Below, piece after piece: positions 20,463-56,700 of a DNA stretch of 64,000 nt; position 1 is the first letter of the stretch, and every line of letters starts with the position of its first letter. The position numbers and the translations under genes were made by a program. A model generated the notes under the pieces. It was given only the letters and a program-made list of their open reading frames with translations, had not been told where the DNA came from and made no database searches. Source of the DNA: Plasmodiophora brassicae (lineage: Eukaryota); assembly GCA_036867785.1 (NCBI GenBank), contig CP145409.1, positions 1,860,001-1,924,000 of the forward strand. Direction: 5' to 3'.

Positions 20463-22969
20463 ATGTTCAGGACCAACCGGTGTATGAGGACTACCATGTG
20501 GATATCGCTGGCCGTGCTTGTTCTGCTATCCGGGGGCGACGCAGCGCTCAGGCTGCGTTCCAGCGATGGGGTCGCCCACGACGTCGACAGGCGCGCGGCG
20601 AGCGCCCACTCGGACGTGCTGAAGCACCTGCTGCCGGCCGGCGGCTCCAGCGGCACCGTGATTCTGCCCAACGTCGCCAGCGGGGAGCTGGCGCCGATTG
20701 TCGAGTTCATCAACACCACCGCCGATTATGACGTACGCACCCGGCACGCACGCCCCGCCCCCCGTGTCTGAGCACTGAACAGGCCGACGTCGCCGAACGA
20801 TGGGTCCTGGACAAGCTGGCAGCATCAGGGGTTGCCGAGCAGTGCCGCCTGGTGACCGCCGCCAACTACCTCGCCATGCACCCGCTCATGAGGGCGATCG
20901 CGTCCACGAAGCGAACATGGGGCGACTTCGCCGCCATGCGCCAGGTGCTGCACCCGGATCCGCTATCCTTCCTCGTGAGCAACGCCCCCGCTGTCGTCCG
21001 CATTCAGCAGGCCATGGCCACCGACGATCAGATCGCGATCGTCGAACGGCTCCGTTGTCTCCTGAACGCGGGCGGAAACGCGACCTTCGTCAATAACGCA
21101 CCATGGGACGCCTGCGGCAACGTGTTGCACTGGGCCGTACGCCATGGGGATCGACCGATCATCGAGCTGCTGGTAACCGCCCCCGGGATCGATGTCAATG
21201 CTCCTGACGCGTCGCAGAGATCGCCGCTGCACCGCGCTGTCGCTGCCGAGTTCGCCGACGTCGTCGCGTTGCTGCTGAAGTCCCCCGATGTCAACGTCAA
21301 CGCCCGGAACGCGCTCCTGGCGACGCCCCTGCACAGAGCCGCGCAGCTCGGCAACGCTGGCATCATTGGACGGCTGCTGCATGCGCCCGGGATCGACATC
21401 AACGCGCGGGACGACGATCTGGTCACGCCGCTCATCGCGTCGGTGTCGACGCAGCGGTTCGACGACCCCGCGCACCGACCGGAATGCCACGCGAGCGCCC
21501 TGATGCTGATCAACGCGCCCGGGATCGACGTGAACGCAAGAGACGTTGACAACATGACCGCCCTGCACTGGGCGGTCACCCTCAGACACCCCGGCGCGGT
21601 CCTGTTGTTGCTCAGCGCGCCAGCCATCAATGTTAACGTGCAGGATCGCCACCTGCAGACGGCGCTGCACTTGGCGGCGGCGACTGGCCAGGCCGAAATC
21701 GTCAAGGCCCTGCTGAGAGGCCCGACCGAGATCGACGTCAACGCGCGGGATCGGAAACAGTATACGCCATTGCACAGAGCGGTCGCCGGTGGGCACGCAA
21801 AGGTCGTCGCGTTGCTGCTCAACGCCGCCGGCATCGACGTCAACGCAAGGGGACCCCGGCAGATGACCGCCCTGCACGGGGCGCTTGCCAGGCAGGCGCC
21901 CAATGACGACGTCGTGCGGTTGCTGGTGAGCGCGCCCGGGGTCGACGTCCGCGCAGGCGATGGTCATCTGTGGACACCACTGCATTGGGCCGCTGCCCTG
22001 GGGCATATCGCGGCCACTGACCTTCTCCTGACGCACCCGGATATCGACGTTAACGCCCGGGACGCTGCTCAAACGACGCCGCTACTACGAGCGGTTGGCG
22101 GCCGCCACGTCAACGTGGTCGTGTTGCTGCTGAGTGTCCCGACGATCGACGTCAACGCCGGCGACGGGGACCGGATGACCGCATTGCACTTGGTGGCATC
22201 CAAGGCCGATATCGGTCTAGACATCGGTCTCTGGTTGCTGGACGCCCCTGCGATCAACGTCAACGCTCGCGACGATTGCCGACGCACGCCCCTGCACTGT
22301 GCCGCTGCGACCGGGCACGTCGACGCCGTCGACGTGCTGCTGGATTGCCCCGGGATCGACGTCAACGCTCGCGACCACGACCTGCGAACGCCGTTGCACA
22401 GGGCCGTCGTTGCTGGCGTCGCCGGCGTCGTCGAATTGCTATTGAGTTACCCCGGGATTCAGGTCAATGCACCGGACAGGGACCGCATGGCCCCGCTGCA
22501 TCTGGCCATCACCCACAGCCATGGCAACGTCGTCGAATTGCTGATCGGCGCCCTGGACGTCGACGTCAACGCGCGCGCCAAGGCCGGCAGGACGCCGTTG
22601 CATTTCGCGGCGCGTTCCGGTCAGGACGGCGTTGTCGCGCGGCTGCTCAGTGCCACGAACGTTGCCGTCAACGCCCACGACGTGAACCGTCAGACGCCGT
22701 TGCACGTCGCCGCGTCCCGCGGGCACGTCTCCACGGTCAGGTTGCTGGCAAGGGCGGCCGGCGTTGACGTCAACGCGAAGGACGCGCTTCAGAGGACGGC
22801 ACTGGACATTGCCAGGGCTCGTGGCCACGACGGCGTCGTTTCGTTGCTGAATGGCCGCGCGCCGCCGAACGGCACGGCCGATCGCCAGGACCGGGCGACG
22901 CGTCCTGCACGCCAGATGCGTCTCGACTGGGAGTACTATCGCGGATGGTCGCCGCCGATGAGCGGTTGA
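20463..22969 (+). CDS. Secreted SKP1/BTB-like + 17 ankyrin repeat protein (copy C)
   Basis: Leader MWISLAVLVLLSGGDAA, LRLRSSDG..VILPNV..LVTAANYLAM; intron 20733-20782; 17 ANK repeats. Alternative starts at 20484 and 20496. Confidence 0.9.
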
Positions 22970-23810: not shown

Positions 23811-24063
23811 ATCGCCGGTCGTGCATGTTCCGTCCCGAATTTGCTCCCCGGAAAACGTCTCCAGCCAACAAGGTATATATCGTCCGCTACCTGGTCAGGC
23901 GAATGCTCAGTCGTGAAACTGGGAACCATTCAATCGGCGCGCATGAAATGGCGGACAAGAGGCTGCCGTCCCGACCTGTAACAGCTACAAAACGGCTGCT
24001 GCCCCAGCGTCGCATGCGGAGTTTGGCCGCCAGAGCGTCAGACGAATAATTGTTCGGTTTGGA

Positions 24064-27000
24064 ATGGGGCGCCCGGCGTCGCCGTCGGTGCTGGCGCAGG
24101 TGCTCGGCGCCGCAGCGGACGCGCTGGACGGGCCGTTCGCCAGGCAGGGCGGCGCCTGGGCGCTGCCGTTCGTCGGAGTCGCGATCGACCGCGCCAGGTC
24201 GTTCCCGGCCCCGTCGGCGGACGCCGCCCAGGACATCTGGTACGACCTGGAGCAATCGGCGAAGACGTTACGTTTCCTGCGTGAGTTTCGTCACGTCGTG
24301 CTCAGCGCGGTCGTTCGCGCTATCGGATGCCGGTTGCTGTTCGCTGGCATACTTGGCAGTGTCGGGGACGACGAGGCGCGTGATGAGCTGTCGGATTCCA
24401 TTGAGCGCGTGCTGGTCCATGGGAAACTGGATGCCCGACTCGCCGAGTGCCTTGACGTGGTATCGCCTGGGGACTGCGTTCGGAAACTGTTGGCCGCCCT
24501 GCCTGACGCGTCGTCGATCGTGGATGTCGTCGATCTCGTCGACCAGCAGCGGGCGGGACGCCACCAACGATATCGATACCTCGGCGTTCTCGTTCCATAC
24601 GCGTTACAGTCTTCGCTCGAGCGCCTGCAGTGCGCTGTGGGATCTTTAGTTGAGCTGGCGCCGTCTGACGCTCACTATCGCATTCGCCTCACGGCTTCCT
24701 CACCTGGGCTGTCTGACATGGTGGCCGTCCTACAAGAATTCTGCGTTCGTGTTCTGCATGCGCCTTCTACAGTCTGGTTAGAGAGTGTTCTTGGTGGACG
24801 TTCGGCCTGGACTGTGTCCGAAGTCGCTGTGGTCGCTTTGTGTGTGGAAGGCGGGTTACATGAAGTTGCTCACGTATGGCGCAAGCTCCGTTCGTCCTGG
24901 CTCAACTTGGTGGGGTCACTGATCGACAGCGATGAATCCGGTCAACTATTCGCTGTTTTCTGCCGCCTCGTCGAACTTGGAGCCGCCCTGGGCGTTGCCA
25001 ACAAGTCAAATCCTCCATCGCGTCTAAACGTTGAACACGTTCGTGCTGCGATCTTGGACCTAGAACGCGAGTGCCGCCTTGCATCGCGATTTACCAGGCA
25101 GTGGCCATACTCGCGTATCACATGGTTCACCCAGATATCGCACGCGTCATCTGTATTCGAACTTCGTCAAGCGCTTCTCGATATGGAGCACCACATACGC
25201 AGTAGCCAGTTGCCAAAGTTATGGCCGTCCAACATGTACGGGATGTGGGCATATCCCCTGCTTCCGTCTGCCTGTTCCCTGGGTTCAGTTCGTTCCGCCC
25301 TACTATCGTTTGTCGTTCTGCTCCCGGACGATACCGCGTTTGTGCCTAAATGGCCACGTCAGTTCTGGGTCCGATCTGTGTCCACCTGTGAACGAGTATT
25401 TCCATTTGGCGAGCTTCTTATTGATTTGGAAACCTTCCTTGAGTACGACGCGCTCTCGTCATCCTGGACGGAATATCGATCCCTGTGGGGACGCGCTGTT
25501 CACGCGTGCGACACAGCGTCCAGTCTCGCGTCATGCGTGCTGGATTTGGAGTCGTTCGCGACAAACTGCCTTCCACAATCATGGTTGAATTCTCAGCGTC
25601 GCGCGAACTGGGTTTCCACATTGGATGCACTGATCATGTCCGACGAGTCAGGGCGCATCTCCAGGATTAAACGCGTTGCTCTGAGGATGTTCCGGGCCTT
25701 AAAGGCAAGCGTATGGGCATCTGCTTTCCGGAAACGACGCGACGAACTCTATTCGCGCTTACTGTCTTGTCGGACCGCCATCCAGGTCGCGGGATTGGTT
25801 CAGTGGGCCGCTGATCACATAACGGTCATAGCGTTGAGCTCGGAATGGTTCAACACGATTAACGTTGCATTCAACTCGTTCTTCCTCTGCGTTTGCCTGA
25901 TCGTGTTGGACGGCATGCTACCCGACGGGGCATTTGAGGAGAGCGAATCGGAAACTCGGGAGTGGCTCGAGGACTTGTACACCCTCCGGCGATGGCATAC
26001 CTCGAATTCGTCTGTGCGTTCCACGCGTTCCGTTCTGGCTGCTTTCGAAGACCACCTTGATCCCGACGTGATGCGGCAGACATGGGTGTCAGATCGTCTT
26101 CTGTGGCAGCGCGTGGTCGCGATCCAAACGACGGATGACGGTATACGAGCGTGTATTGATTCTTTGCTGGCTGCGTTTCTCAAACCCGTTAAACTGGCGC
26201 ACTCATCGCGCGCTGCCGCTTCCACGTTAATTGCGCTTGATTGTATTCTGCCTGATTCTGCGTTCAATCCGAACTGGTTTCGAATTCGCGCCTTGTCACG
26301 TCTGTCACTGCGTTCATCGCCCGTGTCCACACAAGTTCGCGTTGCCGTTTGTCTGGCAACGTTGGTGCAGAATACGGTACGCGACGGCGTCTACCACAGT
26401 ACTGACGTGTGCGACTACGTGGCGCTTTGCGATTTCGAGACTCTCAGGAAGGCGCTAGTCAGTGTTGCCCAGTCCTGCAACGTGGACGCATTTGAGCCCA
26501 ACTGGATCGACCACAAAGCTGTCTGGCTGGAGGCTGTCGACAGAGCGTCCTCCGCAGGCGACCTTAGCGAACCTGTTCTCAACCTGATGCTGTTCATGAA
26601 CAATGCCCCAGATTCGCAGCGCCTCCTGTCGCATTACTTTCATCAGTTGCGGGAAACGTGGGAAATGGCTTTGCTGGCCTGCGACGACGCTGTCGAATGC
26701 GCCCAGCCCCTGGATCATGCATTAGATTATGTTGACGAAGACGACATTGTCGCTGCACGACGCTTACGAATCGACCTGTGGCTGGACGAGCTGGAGCCAC
26801 TCGGACTGAGGCGCTGCCTTGACTGGGAACACGCTGCTATTGACAACGCGTTATCATTTGCAGACCTGGGCATGGGATTGGGACGCGCCATTCTCCGGAC
26901 CTACCTTTCCTGCACGTCTCTGCGGAAGTGCATCGGCGTTGAAGTACGCCTCCAGGTACCAATGGACGTTGCCAGGTCGGACACTGATCCTTGCTCATAG

Positions 27001-27479
27001 GCATCCGCCAATCGTTTCAAGACCACTGTCGCCGCGTTACGCCAATGGCCTGGGCTTGAAGTCGTAGTTGATGTGCCTGCCGCGTGCGTCGTCGCTGATC
27101 GCGACCAGCGTATCCTTGACCTACGTTGCGGTGATCTGTTCGACTGCGAAGACGGTCTGGTTGTCATTGGCGTACGAAACGCGATCTGGCTGAACGTGTT
27201 CTGTATGTAGGCATCCAGTCCGACGTCGTCTTACTGTACATTCGACTGTACCCTGCAATGCGGAGGCGCCTGTGCCGCTTCGTCGTCACGATGAGGCCGG
27301 GTGCTCGCCTGATCACCAACATCGACATTGTATCGTTATTCCTGGCCGTTTTCGATGAACCTGCGCCGTTCGAACAGGTCGCGATCAACCGTTCCACGTT
27401 TGACTGCTTCCGGACGAAAGCGGCGCCGGTCAGCGGCCAACGATTGCTCATCTACCGACGTTTACCAATCGTATCATAA
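24064..27479 (+). CDS. Trp-repeat (WHIM3/WSD-like) protein with C-terminal DOT1-like class I methyltransferase
   Basis: Long exon 1; introns 26944-27000 and 27155-27210 keep the frame; FADLGMGLG, CIGVE, LRCGDLF, SDVVLLY, MRPGARLIT. Confidence 0.75.
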
Positions 27480-27547: not shown

Positions 27548-28409
27548 TCACTGCTTCTTCTCGTCGTCGTCCGCCATCTCCTCTCGGTCCTTCTCGGCCT
27601 TCGCCTCGGCGATCGCCTTCTGGCGAAGCTCCTCGGGGACCCGGACGTGCTTCCGGCCGGATTCGTCACAGACCCAGCTGAGATCCAGCTCGAACTCCTT
27701 GTCCTTGACGTCGTCGTGCAGTTTGTAGATGACCTTCGCGACGATTGATAGCGCTTCGCGAACCGTGACCTTCTCAAAGTCCACCTTCTCCAGCTCGCTG
27801 CACGCCCCGCTCTTCGCCTTGCCGGTTGCGGTCGCGAAGAACCGGTTGCTGACCCCGGATGGGTCGACCTGGTACAGCTCAGGGCCGTCCTTGTCATACG
27901 TCGCAATCAGGACCGACGTCCCGAACGGACGCAAATACCTTCGGCGATGGTCAGACCAAAGGGCGGCCGGACGACGCATGCACACTACCAGTATAGCGTG
28001 TAGGTGTGAACCTCGGACGCGAGGCGGTTGCTCAGGATGTTGCCAGGGATTTGAGCACCGTAGAAGTTCCGGTATTCCTGGCTCTCATGACGCGCGATCT
28101 TGACGATTCTGCGCGCATCGGCAGCCAGCCCAGCCATCGCCACGCCAGCGTGCTCGTCGACAGTAAAGATCCGGCGGTTCCCGCCCGACACGAGCATCTT
28201 GCTCATGACGATGTTCTCGACGCCCAGCACGACCCCGTCCTTGCAGCGAACGCCGATCGCCGTCCTGCAATGCGATGTCAACGTGTCGCCGAGCAGTACC
28301 GGGCGGCGACGAACCCGCTCTTCTCCACGGCCTTGCACGCGTACTCGACCTGGAACACGCGCCCGTCCGGGCTGAACGTCGACGTGCTCAGGTCATACCC
28401 GCTCGACAT
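27548..28409 (-). CDS. PSMA3: 20S proteasome subunit alpha7 (alpha type-3), 3 exons
   Basis: [59 protein letters not shown]. Confidence 0.95.
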
Positions 28410-28922: not shown

Positions 28923-29072
28923 GGCTCCCTGGTCGGAGACTGCGCCCCTGTTTGTGGGCCCGGCCACCGGAGCAGCGGTCGGCTGCAAAAGCCGCGCATG
29001 AAACCCGCCTGGCTTTCCAGCTGAAATTTCATCGCCGGGCGGAAAGTCCGTCGAAGGGGTGGCCGTCGATCG

Positions 29073-30361
29073 ATGTTCGGGACGAGCGGATCGTCGCTGA
29101 CGGCGGCAAAGTCGAACCCGAACAACGACTTCGAGGTCGACCAGGTCCAGCCCGATGGCATATCGTCGCTGGCGTTCTCGCCGACGCCGGATAACTTCCT
29201 GGTCGCGACCAGCTGGAACAACGAGATCCGGTTCTGGCAGGTCATGCCGAACGGGCAGTCGATGCCGAAGGCGATGACGTCGTCGGCCGACCCGCTGCTG
29301 TGCTGCGCCTGGGGATCCGACAACCAGAACGTGTTTTTCGCCGGCGCCGACAAGGCCGTTAAGCACTGGATCCCGTCGACGAACCAGACGCAGCAGCTCG
29401 GGACGCACGACTCCGTCGTCAAGGAAATGGAATGGGTCAAGGACGTCGGCATGCTGTGCACCGGATCCTGGGACCGGACTCTGCGCTGGTGGGACCCTCG
29501 GTCGGCGGGCTCGCCGAAAGCCAACGTTCGTTGTTGGCCATTCGAGACGACGATATGCGCTGAACGTGTGTGTGTGTGTGTGTAGGTGTCGTTGCCCGAG
29601 CGTTGCTATTCGATGTCGGCCGTGTACCCGTTGCTGGTGGTCGCGTGCGGCAACCGCGGCATTGTCATTTACGATTTGAGGAACCCGTCGACGCCGTACA
29701 AGACGGTCGAGTCGTCGTTGCGGGAGCAGACGCGATCGGTGGCCTGCTTCCCCGATCGCACCGGGTTCGCTGTCGGGTCGATCGAAGGGCGCGTGTCCGT
29801 CCAGCACGTTGAGGAGAAGGTGCGTCTGCTGCCGAGTGGTCGTCTTTGCTGACCCTGGGGGGGAGGCACTGATCGTGCGCGTTGGTCAGGACGCTGGTAA
29901 GAACTTCGCGTTCCGGTGTCACCGGGTTGAACCTGGACCCGACATCTACGCGGTCAACCAGATCCGGTTCCACCCCGGGTTCGGCACCTTTGCGACCTGT
30001 GGAGGTGACGGTGTCGTCAATTTCTGGGTATGGTTCCCGTGTGCACGATGGATCGGCGTGTTGACGCGAAATTGCTGCATGCGTAGGACAAGGAGGCGAA
30101 GCAGCGGCTGAAGCTGTTCGCCTCGGTCGGGCAACCGATATCCGCGTCGAATTTCAACCATGACGGCACCATCTTCGGCTATGCAGCATCGTACGAATGT
30201 GGTTGGCGTCTTGCAATGAGGGCCACCTCACTGACGGCGTGCACAGGTACGACTGGTACAAAGGGTCCCAGTTCTACAACAAGAACGAGGCGAGCCGCAT
30301 ATTCCTGCACGCGGTCAGCGAACTCGACATCAAGCCCCGCGGCAAGAAGAACACTCGCTAG
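29073..30361 (+). CDS. RAE1: mRNA export factor Rae1/Gle2 (WD40), multi-exon
   Basis: [44 protein letters not shown]. Confidence 0.93.
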
Positions 30362-50753: not shown

Positions 50754-53700
50754 TTATCGACGGGAGAACAGCCACTCCATGAAGGTCTGCAATTTCTCCT
50801 TGCTGGCGTACCCGTCGGCGTTCAGGCGCGTCATGACGGCGTTCATCAGCGTCGACGTCCCGGACGACGACGTCGGCTCCATCATGGCCTCCAGTTCGGG
50901 CACGTGGTACGACGACCCCAGCAGGCGGACCATGTCGATGGACGCGTTGCGCACGGCGACGTCGTCGTCGTCCCACATGGACAGGATTAGGTGGAGCGCG
51001 CGTTCCCGGCCGACGGTAGCGTGCACCGGCAGGCGGGGCAGGATGCTGGCCAGCGCCGCGCACAGGTCCGCCTTGCTTCGGCGCAGGCGGTTCGCCTGCG
51101 CGTCGCTCTGCAGCGACCCGATCAGCTGCTCGGCCAGCCGTTCGTACAGCAGCGACAGGTCGACCGTGTCGTCGTCGTCACGCGCCCTGCACCCGGTGTG
51201 TTTGTGTCACACGCCTGACGGTGGGGAGGTGGCGCGCGCGCGCGCGAACCCCACCCACCTGACGACTTGGGTGATGCAATCGCGGGCGACCTTGCGCACG
51301 ACCTCGTGCTCGTCGCCCAGGATGCCGATCAGGAACTCGACGCCCGACGCGAACCGCTCCGGGTCGCCCACCTTCAGGTACGCGTACATCCGGCCGAACC
51401 CTTTCACCATCTCCAGGGTCAGCGTCGTCAGCGTCGCCAGCAGCCTGTTGTCCGCCTCGATGCGCGCCTGCCCCCGTGCGTCACACGACGCGCACCCGGC
51501 ACGCACACACGCACACACACGTACCTGTTCATCCTGGGCGGCGCGAATCATGGCGGCGCGTTTCTGCGGGTCGCCGGCCGCCTCGACCTGTGCGGCGGCG
51601 CGCGCGGCGGCGCGCTCCTCGTCCGCGGGCGTCGTGACGATCGGCGCGAGCTGTTGGTCGACGGCGGCGATGATGGCGGCGCGCAGGGCGGCGCAGCGCG
51701 TGCGCGTGTCCGTGCACAGGGTGCGCAGGCGCGCGATCGGCGCGTCCGTGCCGTCGTCCAGGTGGGCGAACGACGCGATCAGGTTGACGAGGACGCCCAT
51801 CGTGTGCGCCTTCGTCTTGAGATCGGCGCGCGTGACGCCCGGCGCCTCCATCGCCGCCAGCAGCTTGTCGAGCAGGACGCGGGCGCTGTCGGCGTTCGAC
51901 GCGATCGTCGCCGACAGCATCGTCTGCAGCTGGTCGGGCGTCATCGCCGCGATCAGGTCGTCGCCGAGCGCGACCCCGCCCGGGTCGTCGTGCGCGTCGC
52001 CCCCGGCCAGCTCCTGCCGCATCGTCGCCGCCGCCAGCGACAGCGACGACCGCGTCGACTCGCGGCGCAGGCGCGCCCGGTGCCCGTCGCGCGCCATCGC
52101 CATGCCCGTCGGCGACGACGGCCGTCGCGTCGCGCTGCTCGTCGCCGACGCCCGCGCTGGCGTCGACATCGCCGCCCCCGCTGGCTCGGACGACGACAAC
52201 GACGACAACGCGCCGGCGGGCGCCGCCCCGTCCGCACCCGGTGCACCGTCGGCGGGCGCGTTGCCCAGCGGTTCGCCCGGCGACGCCGACTGGACCGGGT
52301 GCGGCGCCTGGCCCGCGCCGGCGAACGCCGCCTTCAGGGCGGTCGCCGCGTCGACCGTGGACAGGTCGGGCGGGCGGGCGCCGACGGCCCCGTCGTCGCG
52401 CTCGACGGGGCCGTCCTCGTCGCCGTCCTCGTCGACGGTCGCGATCCCCGTCTTGCTGCCGTCGTTGTCGTCGTCGACCCTGCCGAGGCGGAAGGCCTCG
52501 TCGGGCGCGTTCGTCGCCACGCTGTCCTCCTGGCCGTGCGCGTCGTCGACGATCAGGTTGTCGACGTTGTAGATCAGCGACGAGTGGTACCGGGCGGCGA
52601 TGGACGAGTACCGCTCCGACGCCAGGTACCTGGCGTTCAGCGGGTCGGCGTCGGCGATCGACATCGGGGCGGGCAGGTCGCCGTCGTCGTCGTCGTCGAT
52701 CCCCGACGCGCTGTCGCTCCTGTACGCGCCCGCGACGAGGTCGCCGCCGGACGAGGACACGACGGCGGCGGCCGCCCTCGAGTAGTCGAACGCGCGCAGG
52801 ACCGACGTGCGCATGCGGAAGGCCAGCGATTGCGACAGGCGCTGGCGTGCGACCCGCATCGACGTCTTACGGTCGCCGGCCAGGTCGCCGCCCGCCGCCG
52901 CGTCGTCGCGCCTGGCGGCCCCTTCCAGGATCGGGGTCAGCGACGCGCGGATCGCCTCGCCCAGCGCGCCGTTGACGACCATCCGGACGGCGCGGCGGCG
53001 CACGCCAACGTCGGTGTCGGCGAGCAGGGCGACGACGTGCCCGAGGACCGCCTGCGGGTCCTGGTTCTCGGACAGCAGCGCCAGCAGCGTCAGGCGGCGC
53101 TGCTGGTCGACGGGGTCGACGGCGACGCCCGCCGACCCGTCCAGCCGGTCCTGCAGGGCGCGCAGGACCGGGTCGCCCAGCGCCATCGCCCGCAGCATCG
53201 GCCGGGCGGCCGCCACGATGTAGTCGTGGAACTCGGCGTCGTCGATGTCGTCGATCAGGTCGACGAGCTGCTGGACGACCGGGGAGCCCTACGTCGCGGT
53301 GGGTGGGCGTGCGTTCACAGGCGCGATGGGCGGCGCGCGTCACGCACCGAGTCGCAGATCGCGCCCAGCAGGACGAGGAGCTCGAGCGCGAGGTGCTTCG
53401 TCTGCCGCGTCGTCGCCTGCTCGGACAGGATCCGCCGCACCTGGTCGACGAGGGCGCGCGCCTGCGCCGCCGCGACGATCTCGGCGAGGTCGTGCAGCGC
53501 GGCGACCGGCACGAGCACGGCGTGCAGGGCGTGGACGAGGCCGTCGTGGGCGCCGGCGCCGGCGCCGGCGCGCCCTACGACGTACTCGACGACGCGGTGC
53601 ACGGCGATGACGGGGGCGGCCTGGGCGAACGTGCCCAGGGCGATGGCGAACCCGGCGAGCCGGTCCGTCGGCAGGGCGGCGATCTGGCGGTCCAGCTCGG

Positions 53701-56700
53701 CGCACAGGCGATCGGCGAGCGCCTCGCGCGACTCGTCGCTGATCCTGCCGGCCAGCTCGCTGACGACGACGGCGGCGCTGGCCGCGAACCCGGTCGGCGA
53801 CGACAGGAACCGGAGCAGGCGGTCGGCCGTGTGCTCGGCCTCGGCGCCGACGTCGCCGACGACGCGCTCGTTGCCGATCAGCGCCCGCACCTGGTCGACG
53901 AACGCGCGGTTGATCGGCGGCGGGTTCATGACCGCGTCGGCGTGCGCCTCGTAGTCGTCGTCGGCGTCGTCGTCGCGGGACGCCCCCCTGTCGGCGGGGG
54001 CGCCCAGGTCGAACGCGTCGTGGCACGCGAACGACAGGGCGGTCGGCGGCGGCGCCGTCGCCTCCAGCGCCAGCGACGACGCCGGCGCGCGCATGCTCTG
54101 CACGAGGTGGACGGTGGGCGACGACGGCAGCGACAGCGTCTTGGCCTGGATGCCGCGGCGCACCTCGACGCGCACGTCGATGTCGCTGTCGGCCAGCAAC
54201 GGCAGCACCTGCCACAGGGCGGACGCCATCGAGGCGCGCACGTCGCTCGGCATGTCGGCGGCGGCGACGTCGGCGATGCCGAACACGGCGGACGTGGCGT
54301 CGCGCCTGAACTCGTAGTTCGGGTGGCACAGGAACGGCGTCAGGTCGGCGAGGAACTTGGGCACCATCGCCAGCGACGCCGGCGTGCCGCACGACCCCAT
54401 CGCCCTGATCGACACGCGCCCGACCAGGTGCCGCTGCGCCTTGGTCAGGTTCGCCATCAGCGGGTCGCCCGGGTCCGCCCCCGCCGCCAGCAACGGCTCA
54501 ATGTCGCCTGCGACGACACACCGCGCCCCATATATGAGCGGGCGCCCTAATAACAGCGTGCAGGCGCGCGTCGTCCGTTACCCATGAGGAACTCAAAGTA
54601 GGCGGTCGCGTCGTACACGTTCGCCGGCAGGGTTGCCGCGCATCGCGCCACGACCACGTAGAGGCGGTCGGCGCCCGCCGACGACGTCGTCAGCATCTGG
54701 CGCGTCGCGTTCCGCAGGTGGTCCAGGTTCGCCGCCAGCACCGCGGTCGCCTCGTTCCTGTTCGCCGCCGTCGGGTTCGCCAGGTGGTCCAGCAGGAGCG
54801 TCTCGATGAGGCGGACGATGGCCTTGGGCGGCAGGGCACCCGGCGCCGGGCGCCCCTTGGCGTTCGCCAGGGCGCGTTCGCCGAGCATGTCCGTCAGGGT
54901 GCCGAGCAGGCGCGTCGTCAGCCAGACGTTCAGCCTCGGGATGTGCCGGCGCGCCAGGCCGTCCAGGATCGCCAGCGCGCTGTCCTGGACGAACGCAGCG
55001 GCGCCGTCGATCAGCGCGTCGACGGCGTCGGCGATGGCCGCGTCGGCAATGTCGCGCAGGAGGCGCGCGCCCAGGAAGCAGACCTTGATGGCGGTGTCGA
55101 CGGCGGCGGCGCGCACGACCCGATTGTTCGAGGCCAGCAGCGGGCGCAGGGCGCGCTCGACGGGGACGTCCGCCGTGCCGATCCGGATCGGGACCCGCAG
55201 GCGGCTGAACAGGAGGACGTACCAGTTGGGCAGGTGCGTCCAGACGTCGGCCCGCATCGTCACCGAGTCCGTCGCCATCGCGAACAGGCGCGCCCGGACG
55301 AGGTCGGCGATGCCGCCCGCGACCAGGTGCCCGATGACGCCGAACAGCGGCTCGGGATCCGCCCAGGTCGTCATCGCCGACACGATCTGGTTGTAGGCGC
55401 CCAGGCGCACGTGCAGGTCCGGGTGCCGGATCAGGCCCGCCGACTTCAACAGGAGCGCGTGGAACGCGCTCGTGCTGGCCGCCGACTTCCATTGCGGCCC
55501 CGACGACACGTCCAGGAACCCGCGCAGGCTGGCGAACGCGGCGACCGGGTCGACGTCGCCGATCCCGACGACCAGGATGGCCAGCGCCGCACACGCGAGG
55601 TCGTTCGACGTCCAGAACCGCCGGCAGCTGGCCAGGACGGTGTACACCGCCTGGCGCAACGTCGACGACGTCGGGGCGAACGCCTTCGGCGCGAGATGGT
55701 CGACCAGGAGGCGGTGCAGGCGCGCCACCGGCAGCTCGTGCAGCGGGAACATGGACAGCACCTCCAGCGCGAGCAGGACGCACGCGTCGTCGTCGGAGCA
55801 CAGCAGCTGCCTGAAGTACGTCTCCGACGACCTCAGCAGCGACTTGGACATGGTCGGCAGGGCGCGCTTCAACGCGCGAAAGATGGCCAGGACCGCCGCC
55901 TGCGCGCGCGTGTTGCCTGACGCGCCCAGGTCAGCGAACCGGCGCGCGTGTGTGTACCGTGCGTGTGTACGTGCGTACCCGTTTGCAGCATGGGCAGGAG
56001 CTGCTGGATGAGGTTGGCGTCGAGCTCGGTGGCGCGTGACGCCCAGTGCCGTACGAGGTCGAGGTTGTCGAGCTGGGCGGCGAGCGGCATGCACCGCGTG
56101 CTGCCGAGGAGGGCGGTCAGCTGGCGCGGCAGGATGTTCGCGCCGTACATGACGGCCTCGGCGACGACGTCGGAGAGCGTGACCGGGCGGCTGTGATGCT
56201 GGTGGTGCCGCTGCTCGAACGAGTGCAGCAGGTCGACGAGCGAGTGGAGCTTGCGGCACGTGGCGATCTGCATGAGGATGTGCAGGTGCAGGTTGCGGGT
56301 CACGAGGTGCACGTCGCAGCAGCGGTTGACAACGATCGGGTACAGGTCCGGGACGCGGTCGACGAGCTCGGGCGCGGCGTCCAACGTGGCGCTGACCATG
56401 ATGGCCGCCCCGTACCGGACCAGCGTCGGCGATAGCGCCGTCATAACCACCATGACGTTCTCGATGAACCTGACGGTCTCGGGCGGGGGTGCGCCGCCCG
56501 GGTTCGCCGCCATCGCCGCCGACGTCAGCGTGCGGGTCGCCACGGCCACCTGGTCGTAATGCGCCTCACAGCGCCCCGTCAACAGCTTCACGAGCGCCGT
56601 GTACGCGTCAGCGACCGTGGCCCCGCCGTGACGTCGTCGCCCAGGCGAGCGCTCGCCGTCGCCTTCGCGTTCGGCGACGAGTTCGTCGGGCGGCCGGCGC

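Follow-up and report, generated by a model that had tools for sequence, protein, structure and literature searches.

The closest described counterparts of the gene presented here are the canonical Dot1/DOT1L enzymes (Pfam family PF08123) and LpDot1, a compact DOT1-like enzyme of Legionella whose structure is deposited as PDB 9NE1. LpDot1 is reported to be inactive on histones and to methylate SFPQ at K518, and its gate loops are described as including a ...YVYGE loop; the same preprint states that residues F131 and W305 of DOT1L orient lysine 79 of histone H3 (H3K79) (10.64898/2026.01.11.698932). Deep-branching viral homologues of DOT1 are mentioned in a preprint on chromatin evolution (10.1101/2021.11.30.470311). 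The present analysis concerns a gene located at positions 24064-27479, + strand, of a 64,000-nucleotide stretch of DNA of the clubroot parasite Plasmodiophora brassicae (assembly GCA_036867785.1, contig CP145409.1, positions 1,860,001 to 1,924,000), hereafter the window, whose product joins a long array of tryptophan-pair (Trp-pair) repeats to a C-terminal DOT1-like domain. A literature search returned nothing on this protein or on the repeat-DOT1 architecture. On balance, we lean towards reading it as an S-adenosylmethionine (SAM)-binding DOT1-type enzyme equipped with a Trp-repeat docking arm, the target of which would be something other than H3K79, probably a non-histone protein lysine.

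The last ~205 residues of the protein are securely assigned, by homology, to a diverged branch of a DOT1-like subfamily of class I SAM methyltransferases. As delimited by hhalign and phmmer, the domain covers approximately residues 887-1099 (26722-27473, spliced), or 26593-27476 when the wider span from about residue 844, with the introns and flanking helices, is considered. A HMMER search of 1.84 billion representative sequences provided 217 matches at E ≤ 1e-3, 48 at E ≤ 1e-10 and 2 at E ≤ 1e-30; nearly all of the non-orthologue matches covered query residues ~846-1052, and the best of them were the metagenomic proteins P0008 (4e-27) and P0009 (6e-25). Pfam DOT1 was found in 36 of the 43 relatives scanned at E ≤ 0.01, and in 30 of the 43 at the 23-bit cut-off, the seven relatives without it being repeat-only proteins and P0026. 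By comparing profiles, an alignment between a three-plasmodiophorid profile and a 29-member DOT1-like profile was obtained with an hhalign probability of 99.95% and an E value of 7e-38 over 205 columns (residues 843-1055 of the deposited model P0004). This agrees with the first-pass annotation, made from the DNA letters, which had described a hidden DOT1-like domain: Pfam is silent on the protein at E ≤ 10, yet the profile comparison places it with the DOT1-like family.

Searches against solved structures lead to the same family. With the query left out, the 29-member profile matched 22 PDB sequences at E ≤ 1e-3: 20 of Dot1/DOT1L type (including 1U2Z, 1NW3, 8FJM and 9NE1) and 2 of aKMT type; P0004 itself, compared with PDB sequences by phmmer, gave 0 matches at E ≤ 10. 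In a protein-language-model search (Atlas), the C-terminus grouped with DOT1 clusters at 0.95 in 18 of 30 matches, and nine of the ten top clusters, drawn from protists and viruses, carry Pfam DOT1. Membership of the DOT1 superfamily is regarded as secure because the phmmer/HMMER, profile-profile, PDB-profile and language-model searches agree.

The domain has a class I core homologous to that of canonical Dot1/DOT1L, with motif I, the D-F motif and the acidic residue that follows strand 2 in common, and the family profile matches 1U2Z with an E value of 1e-8 and 1NW3 with 1.8e-6. It differs in lying below the Pfam threshold, in its changed YGE, Asn-equivalent and SW positions, in having no basic C-terminal nucleosome-binding extension and in its N-terminal architecture. 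LpDot1 resembles it in domain size, in the DxGxGxG motif and in ending directly after the core without a long C-terminal extension; 9NE1 is the top match of the family profile when the query is included (E 3.7e-9), and the fourth, tied with Dot1 chains, when the query is left out (1.4e-8). Unlike the P. brassicae protein, which has LDE and lacks the tryptophan of TSW, LpDot1 and most relatives keep YGE. Moreover, whereas LpDot1 is a catalytic domain alone, the P. brassicae protein presents an N-terminal extension of ~880 residues that includes the Trp-repeat array. The suggestion of the earlier annotation that the substrate may be other than H3K79 is plausible by analogy with LpDot1, which stands among the best solved matches and methylates SFPQ, not histones.

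For the motif tally, 122 domain sequences were aligned to the family model, and the 119 non-plasmodiophorid ones were counted. In the SAM-binding loop, motif I (DLGMGLG, residues 934-940, 26863-26883) keeps the three glycines present in at least 90% of relatives. The GVE at the acidic end of strand 2 (residues 958-960, 26935-26943), encoded by the last codons before the first intron, keeps the G and the E found in at least 90%, and the Arg that follows it and the Asp before strand 4, both also present in at least 90%, are retained together with GDLF (residues 1004-1007, 27130-27141), which reads in the translation of exon 2. A DxGxGxG motif, an acidic residue after strand 2 and a D-F type motif are all present and align with family columns conserved at 90% or above. 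With motif I, GVE, GDLF and the conserved Arg and Asp residues all retained, the methyltransferase domain is predicted from its sequence to still bind SAM.

The positions that shape the substrate gate are replaced. At residues 907-909 (26782-26790), LDE stands in place of the gate-loop motif YGE (loop-EF in LpDot1, the D1 region in DOT1L), the G and E of which occur in at least 90%, and the Y in 70-79%, of the 119 relatives; the E is retained, and LDE is also found in Spongospora. At 27237-27242, Y1021-I1022 replace an (E/Q)-T pair whose T is kept in 80-89% of relatives, and Y1021 is aligned with the Asn of ..LLSNLLFP.. in 8fjm_A. The Asn of VNN or SN after strand 4 has a role in DOT1L; since E or Q occupies the equivalent position in ~60% of the DOT1-like subfamily, the difference from canonical Dot1 at this point is common to the subfamily as a whole. 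In plasmodiophorids, GK has become GR or GQ (K in 80-89% of relatives), TY has become TN (Y in 80-89%) and GHH has become GQR or GLR, while TSW, with its W in at least 90% of relatives, reads TKA in P. brassicae and ASS in Spongospora, so that the motif Trp, the counterpart of W305 in DOT1L, is an Ala in P. brassicae. The changes at YGE and at the equivalent of VNN, which the first-pass annotation had proposed, are seen in the alignment and are conserved in Spongospora.

The altered motifs are near-identical in both plasmodiophorid genera, with LDE, Y-I and T-N being identical, which argues that the altered form is under selection. Compared with Spongospora, no part of the protein is better conserved than the methyltransferase core, with 51% identity against 27-39% for the repeats and 17% for the N-terminus. 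An intact cofactor site combined with a gate that was rebuilt under conservation fits both a retargeted enzyme and a SAM-binding pseudoenzyme, and we modestly prefer the former. Because the gate residues (YGE loop, E/Q-T, TY and TSW...GHH) are replaced and no C-terminal extension follows the core, the target would probably be a non-histone protein lysine, and not nucleosomal H3K79.

The Trp-pair unit is a real helical repeat without a database family, consisting of tandem units of ~40 residues with an L..LE helix, a W-x6-8-W helix and a small-residue turn. After a poorly conserved N-terminal region (residues 1-247, 24064-24804; 17-27% identity to Spongospora, no Pfam family), approximately 14 diverged units were delimited at residues ~248-920 (24805-26826) through the unit alignment, self-hhalign, comparison of hidden Markov models (HMMs) with shuffled sequences, and AlphaFold2. 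The consensus over 14 anchored units is s..lr.alL.lE..l.....f...W...R..W...v, and the Trp pairs, 5-10 residues apart, recur with a period of 38-44 residues from W347 to W681, with more pairs before and after. The best-preserved unit corresponds to residues 444-483 (25393-25512; W468/W475), with 16.3 bits against the bacterial-type unit HMM, and it is the unit that the earlier annotation gave as its example, LLIDLETFLEYDALSSSWTEYRSLWGRAVHACDTASSLA, which lies at residues 451-489. The units are very diverged, as self-BLASTP of the protein found no off-diagonal match at E ≤ 10.

By using the orthologue alignment, self-hhalign aligned residues 347-627 with 468-737 over 257 columns with a P value of 1.7e-6, with weaker registers from 0.0077 to 0.056. 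A one-unit HMM built from bacterial-type proteins only scored the P. brassicae protein at 22.0 bits, whereas none of 500 shuffles exceeded 4.3; the reverse HMM, built from the P. brassicae protein, exceeded 200 shuffles in seven of nine other repeat proteins, with P0009 and P0065 failing. The repeats reported in the first-pass annotation are real on both counts, the self-hhalign alignment and HMM scores above those of all shuffles; their extent had to be revised, from about ten units at 25050-26680 to ~14 at 24805-26826. The AlphaFold2 model of residues 300-700, obtained with an 11-sequence alignment, is all-helical, with 22 helices, a predicted local distance difference test score (pLDDT) of 76.8 and a predicted template modelling score of 0.67, and together with self-hhalign it supports the proposed helical array fused to a methyltransferase domain. 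Foldseek and VIA wide searches with the repeat model retrieved generic helical matches only and no clear solved counterpart, the unit profile gave one chance-level match in the PDB (E 0.78), and the Atlas search gave no usable match for the repeat part. In the proposed mechanism, the array would serve as a docking arm, bringing the methyltransferase domain together with a protein partner or substrate.

The architecture extends beyond P. brassicae. The orthologue of Spongospora subterranea, P0006, was found with an E value of 2e-156 and 35% identity, collinear over residues 99-1049, and it already bears the automatic name 'DOT1 domain-containing protein', whereas the deposited P. brassicae entry is called hypothetical; the Spongospora proteins P0006 and P0155 (UniRef A0A0H5QRK7 and A0A0H5QSY7) carry nearly the same altered motifs in another genus, and the repeats are unannotated in the proteins of either genus. 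Two metagenomic proteins, P0008 (1306 residues; 829 columns, E 3e-27) and P0009 (1224 residues; 830 columns, E 2e-26), are collinear with the P. brassicae protein from residue ~240-250 to the C-terminus and retain the canonical F/YGE, ET/QT and T[ST]W..GHH, and in P0012 and P0047 Trp-pair units also lie upstream of a DOT1 domain. From these four proteins, the repeat-DOT1 fusion appears to be older and wider than the plasmodiophorids, and the remodelled gate to be a plasmodiophorid peculiarity. Because collinear full-length homologues exist outside the plasmodiophorids, the whole architecture was probably inherited and would not be a local accident.

The same unit is found in proteins without a methyltransferase. 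The repeat-only proteins among the HMMER matches are P0022, P0065, P0075, P0094, P0113 and P0007. P0022 and P0065 each begin with a signal-peptide-like stretch and contain ~18 very clean units arranged in threes, and P0065 is encoded on a contig of an uncultured Spirochaetia metagenome-assembled genome, amid ordinary bacterial genes. The alignment of P0022 with the P. brassicae protein by hhalign showed seven alternative registers at P ≤ 5.5e-4. The secreted bacterial proteins P0065, P0022 and P0113 resemble the array in the ~40-residue unit, in HMM cross-recognition in both directions and in the grouping in threes; they differ in their signal peptide, in the absence of a methyltransferase domain, in cleaner repeats and in having no Pfam or NCBIfam family. 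An NCBIfam scan of P0004, P0022, P0065 and P0113 returned noise only, and word-based homologue searches returned the protein itself and P0065 only. Close relatives of P0022 were looked for in species genomes and none was found, the alignment-based scan returning P0065's own contig only.

Some further observations were made on these homologues. In P0022, the units (57/97/138, 196/236/277, 335/375/415...) follow one another in threes and are then separated by a linker of ~20 residues, with an additional Trp placed seven residues ahead of the pair in the third unit; the 121-residue internal shift of the P. brassicae array equals three units and matches this grouping, which hints at a higher-order domain of ~120-140 residues. 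P0007, a 248-residue fragment encoded on a 747-nucleotide contig of a Beta vulgaris (sugar beet) record, shares 36% identity with residues 321-560 and has the plasmodiophorid proteins as its nearest relatives; it is probably contamination from a root-infecting plasmodiophorid such as Polymyxa. In P0030 and P0036, the DOT1-like domain is preceded by a weak PTM/DIR17-like Tudor match (22.6 and 20.4 bits, short of the cut-off of 27.2 bits), and at least some members of the compact DOT1-like subfamily may be chromatin-linked.

The gene is a real, expressed, three-exon gene of P. brassicae. PBRA_007035 ('hypothetical protein ..., partial') is 99% identical to the product of the window gene, whose spliced coding sequence comprises 3303 nucleotides, or 1100 codons followed by a stop, within 24064-27479. 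The first in-frame ATG of the long + strand frame is at 24064, and the frame continues to 26943. Exon 1 (24064-26943, residues 1-960) holds the N-terminal region, the entire repeat array and the start of the methyltransferase, and it is followed by intron 1 (26944-27000, 57 nucleotides, GT..AG), exon 2 (27001-27154, residues 961-1011 and the first base of codon 1012), intron 2 (27155-27210, 56 nucleotides, GT..AG) and exon 3 (27211-27479, the remainder of codon 1012 to residue 1100, with the stop codon TAA at 27477-27479). The spliced contigs cut intron 2 between 27153 and 27210 with an ambiguity of +1, and its donor is placed at 27155 because the reading frame requires it. All strings quoted in the first-pass annotation are in the translation, with FADLGMGLG and CIGVE at the end of exon 1, LRCGDLF in exon 2, and SDVVLLY and MRPGARLIT in exon 3.

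The deposited models P0004 and P0005 share the exact junctions CIGVE/AS.NRF and DCEDG/IQSD, and both introns are absent from the contigs of four of four sequencing runs (X1, X5, X7 and X11), from four studies, which cover 24000-26943, and with it exon 1, without interruption. Since the contigs skip both introns and cover exon 1 without a gap, the gene is transcribed and spliced as modelled, and the two short introns proposed earlier are established from both the deposited models and the contigs. P0005, a model of 814 residues with the source label '(mitochondrion)', drops 286 residues of the repeat array (246-531, 24799-25656). This skip was rejected as unsupported, as the contigs of the four runs span 24799-25656 without a joint, and the predicted intron looks like an annotation error because the stretch is covered unbroken.

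The main competing explanation is that of a pseudoenzyme, in which methyl transfer was lost and the domain persists as a module that binds SAM or S-adenosylhomocysteine, or as a purely structural module ending a helical scaffold protein; we consider it somewhat improbable, yet it deserves serious attention. In its favour, both genera show substitutions at family-conserved positions of the gate and channel (YGE by LDE, GK by GR/GQ, (E/Q)T by YI, TY by TN, TSW by TKA/ASS and GHH by GQR/GLR), and the domain escapes detection by Pfam DOT1. However, all the expected SAM-contact positions (DLGMGLG, GVE and GDLF) are kept, conservation within the protein peaks in this domain (51%), and the invariant E of YGE is still in place. 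Furthermore, the Asn-equivalent position is already E/Q across a subfamily that looks active, and the loss of the canonical residue is therefore not diagnostic.

Another explanation, which was put forward in the first-pass annotation, links the array to the partners of ISWI: the units would be WHIM3/WSD motifs, and the array a multiplied chromatin module through which a Dot1-type enzyme is recruited to nucleosomes. The pattern L..LE......W...R..W...v..s does recall the WSD/WAKZ motif, in which a helix ending in LE is followed by W...W and then by the small-residue start of a helix, and the weak sub-cut-off Tudor-type matches of P0030 and P0036 indicate that chromatin links exist in the subfamily. 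Nevertheless, WSD, WHIM1 (PF15612) and DDT gave no match at E ≤ 10 in the P. brassicae protein or in 10 repeat-bearing relatives, and the 69-position WSD model PF15613 gave none in the Spirochaetia genome that encodes P0065, both results being at HMMER sensitivity. The unit profile retrieved no ISWI-partner chain from the PDB, and structure searches with the repeat model gave generic fold matches with no ISWI partner among the matches listed, an absence that does not exclude the fold. According to PMC8536118, WHIM motifs occur in single copy within a DDT module, unlike the tandem array here. The likeness to the WHIM/WSD of ISWI-partner DDT proteins is one of pattern only, while the differences are the missing profile match, the missing DDT domain, the ~14 tandem copies and the occurrence of the unit in secreted bacterial proteins, and the presence of signal peptides on these proteins argues against a dedicated ISWI or chromatin role. 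The kinship with WHIM/WSD is thus a possible but unsupported lead, and we consider the explanation as a whole improbable. Still less probable, in our judgement, is that the array binds nucleic acid as repeats of PPR, OPR or HAT type do, with RNA, or a protein bound to RNA, as the target of the methyltransferase. In its broad layout the array, with its two-helix units and a period of 38-40 residues, does look like the RNA-binding helical repeats outlined in PMC8635915, but no PPR, OPR, HAT or TPR family matched at E ≤ 10 in the protein or its repeat-bearing relatives, the homologous bacterial proteins carry signal peptides, and the DOT1 family is known for protein-lysine methyltransferases; in the absence of any family match, the OPR/PPR/HAT-type repeat was set aside as a candidate.

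Turning back to the retargeted DOT1-type enzyme with a docking arm, several results count against it. The Pfam scan of the exon products and of both deposited models (P0001-P0005) returned 0 families at E ≤ 10, and the Spongospora orthologue, with 22.5 bits for Pfam DOT1, falls barely below the 23-bit cut-off. Two of the ~11 positions kept in at least 90% of relatives are lost (the G of YGE and the W of TSW), as are several of those kept in at least 80%, and these losses fit an inactive enzyme equally well as a retargeted one. The single-sequence AlphaFold2 model of the C-terminal 251 residues was unusable (pLDDT 39), leaving this protein's own domain without confirmation at the level of the fold. 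The presence of the repeats in secreted bacterial proteins says, about their binding partner, only that they are a generic scaffold. Finally, the four runs were taken as RNA by guess, and the actual evidence for splicing is the intron-less contigs.

The genomic surroundings are ordinary. A large ankyrin-repeat protein (Ank_2, E 1e-89) is encoded upstream at 20732-22969 (+) and a WD40 protein downstream at 29025-29852 (+); between the latter and the gene lies a convergent, intron-split proteasome-subunit gene at 27551-28392 (-; Pfam Proteasome), with ~70 nucleotides between the two stop codons. These neighbours are common eukaryotic genes, and nothing suggests a functional cluster with the Trp-repeat/DOT1 gene. 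The spliced contig of X1, with 4152 nucleotides, extends ~640 nucleotides beyond 27600 into the proteasome-subunit gene, which reflects either overlapping 3' ends or transcripts merged by the assembler. The G+C content reaches 0.72-0.76 at positions 52001-56000, against 0.55-0.68 in the rest of the window.

DOT1 enzymes are usually treated as single-purpose writers of H3K79 methylation, and LpDot1 shows that action on non-histone proteins is possible. What is new here is a conserved and expressed lineage in which a DOT1-like domain is joined to a long array of unmodelled repeats and has a remodelled substrate gate. A broader idea, which is possible but on the doubtful side, is that the Trp-pair unit represents an unmodelled family shared by secreted bacterial proteins and a protist DOT1-like clade, where it would act as the substrate-selecting arm of non-histone lysine methyltransferases; the plasmodiophorid gate (LDE, Y-I, no SW Trp) would then have been rebuilt, in an obligate plant parasite, for a new substrate class or for a new SAM-sensing role. 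That bacterial secreted proteins and at least four further DOT1-like proteins also carry the repeat suggests that it is a reusable module for binding which present domain databases overlook. The P. brassicae protein thus offers a defined case in which to ask what the compact protist DOT1-like enzymes methylate and what the Trp-pair repeat binds.

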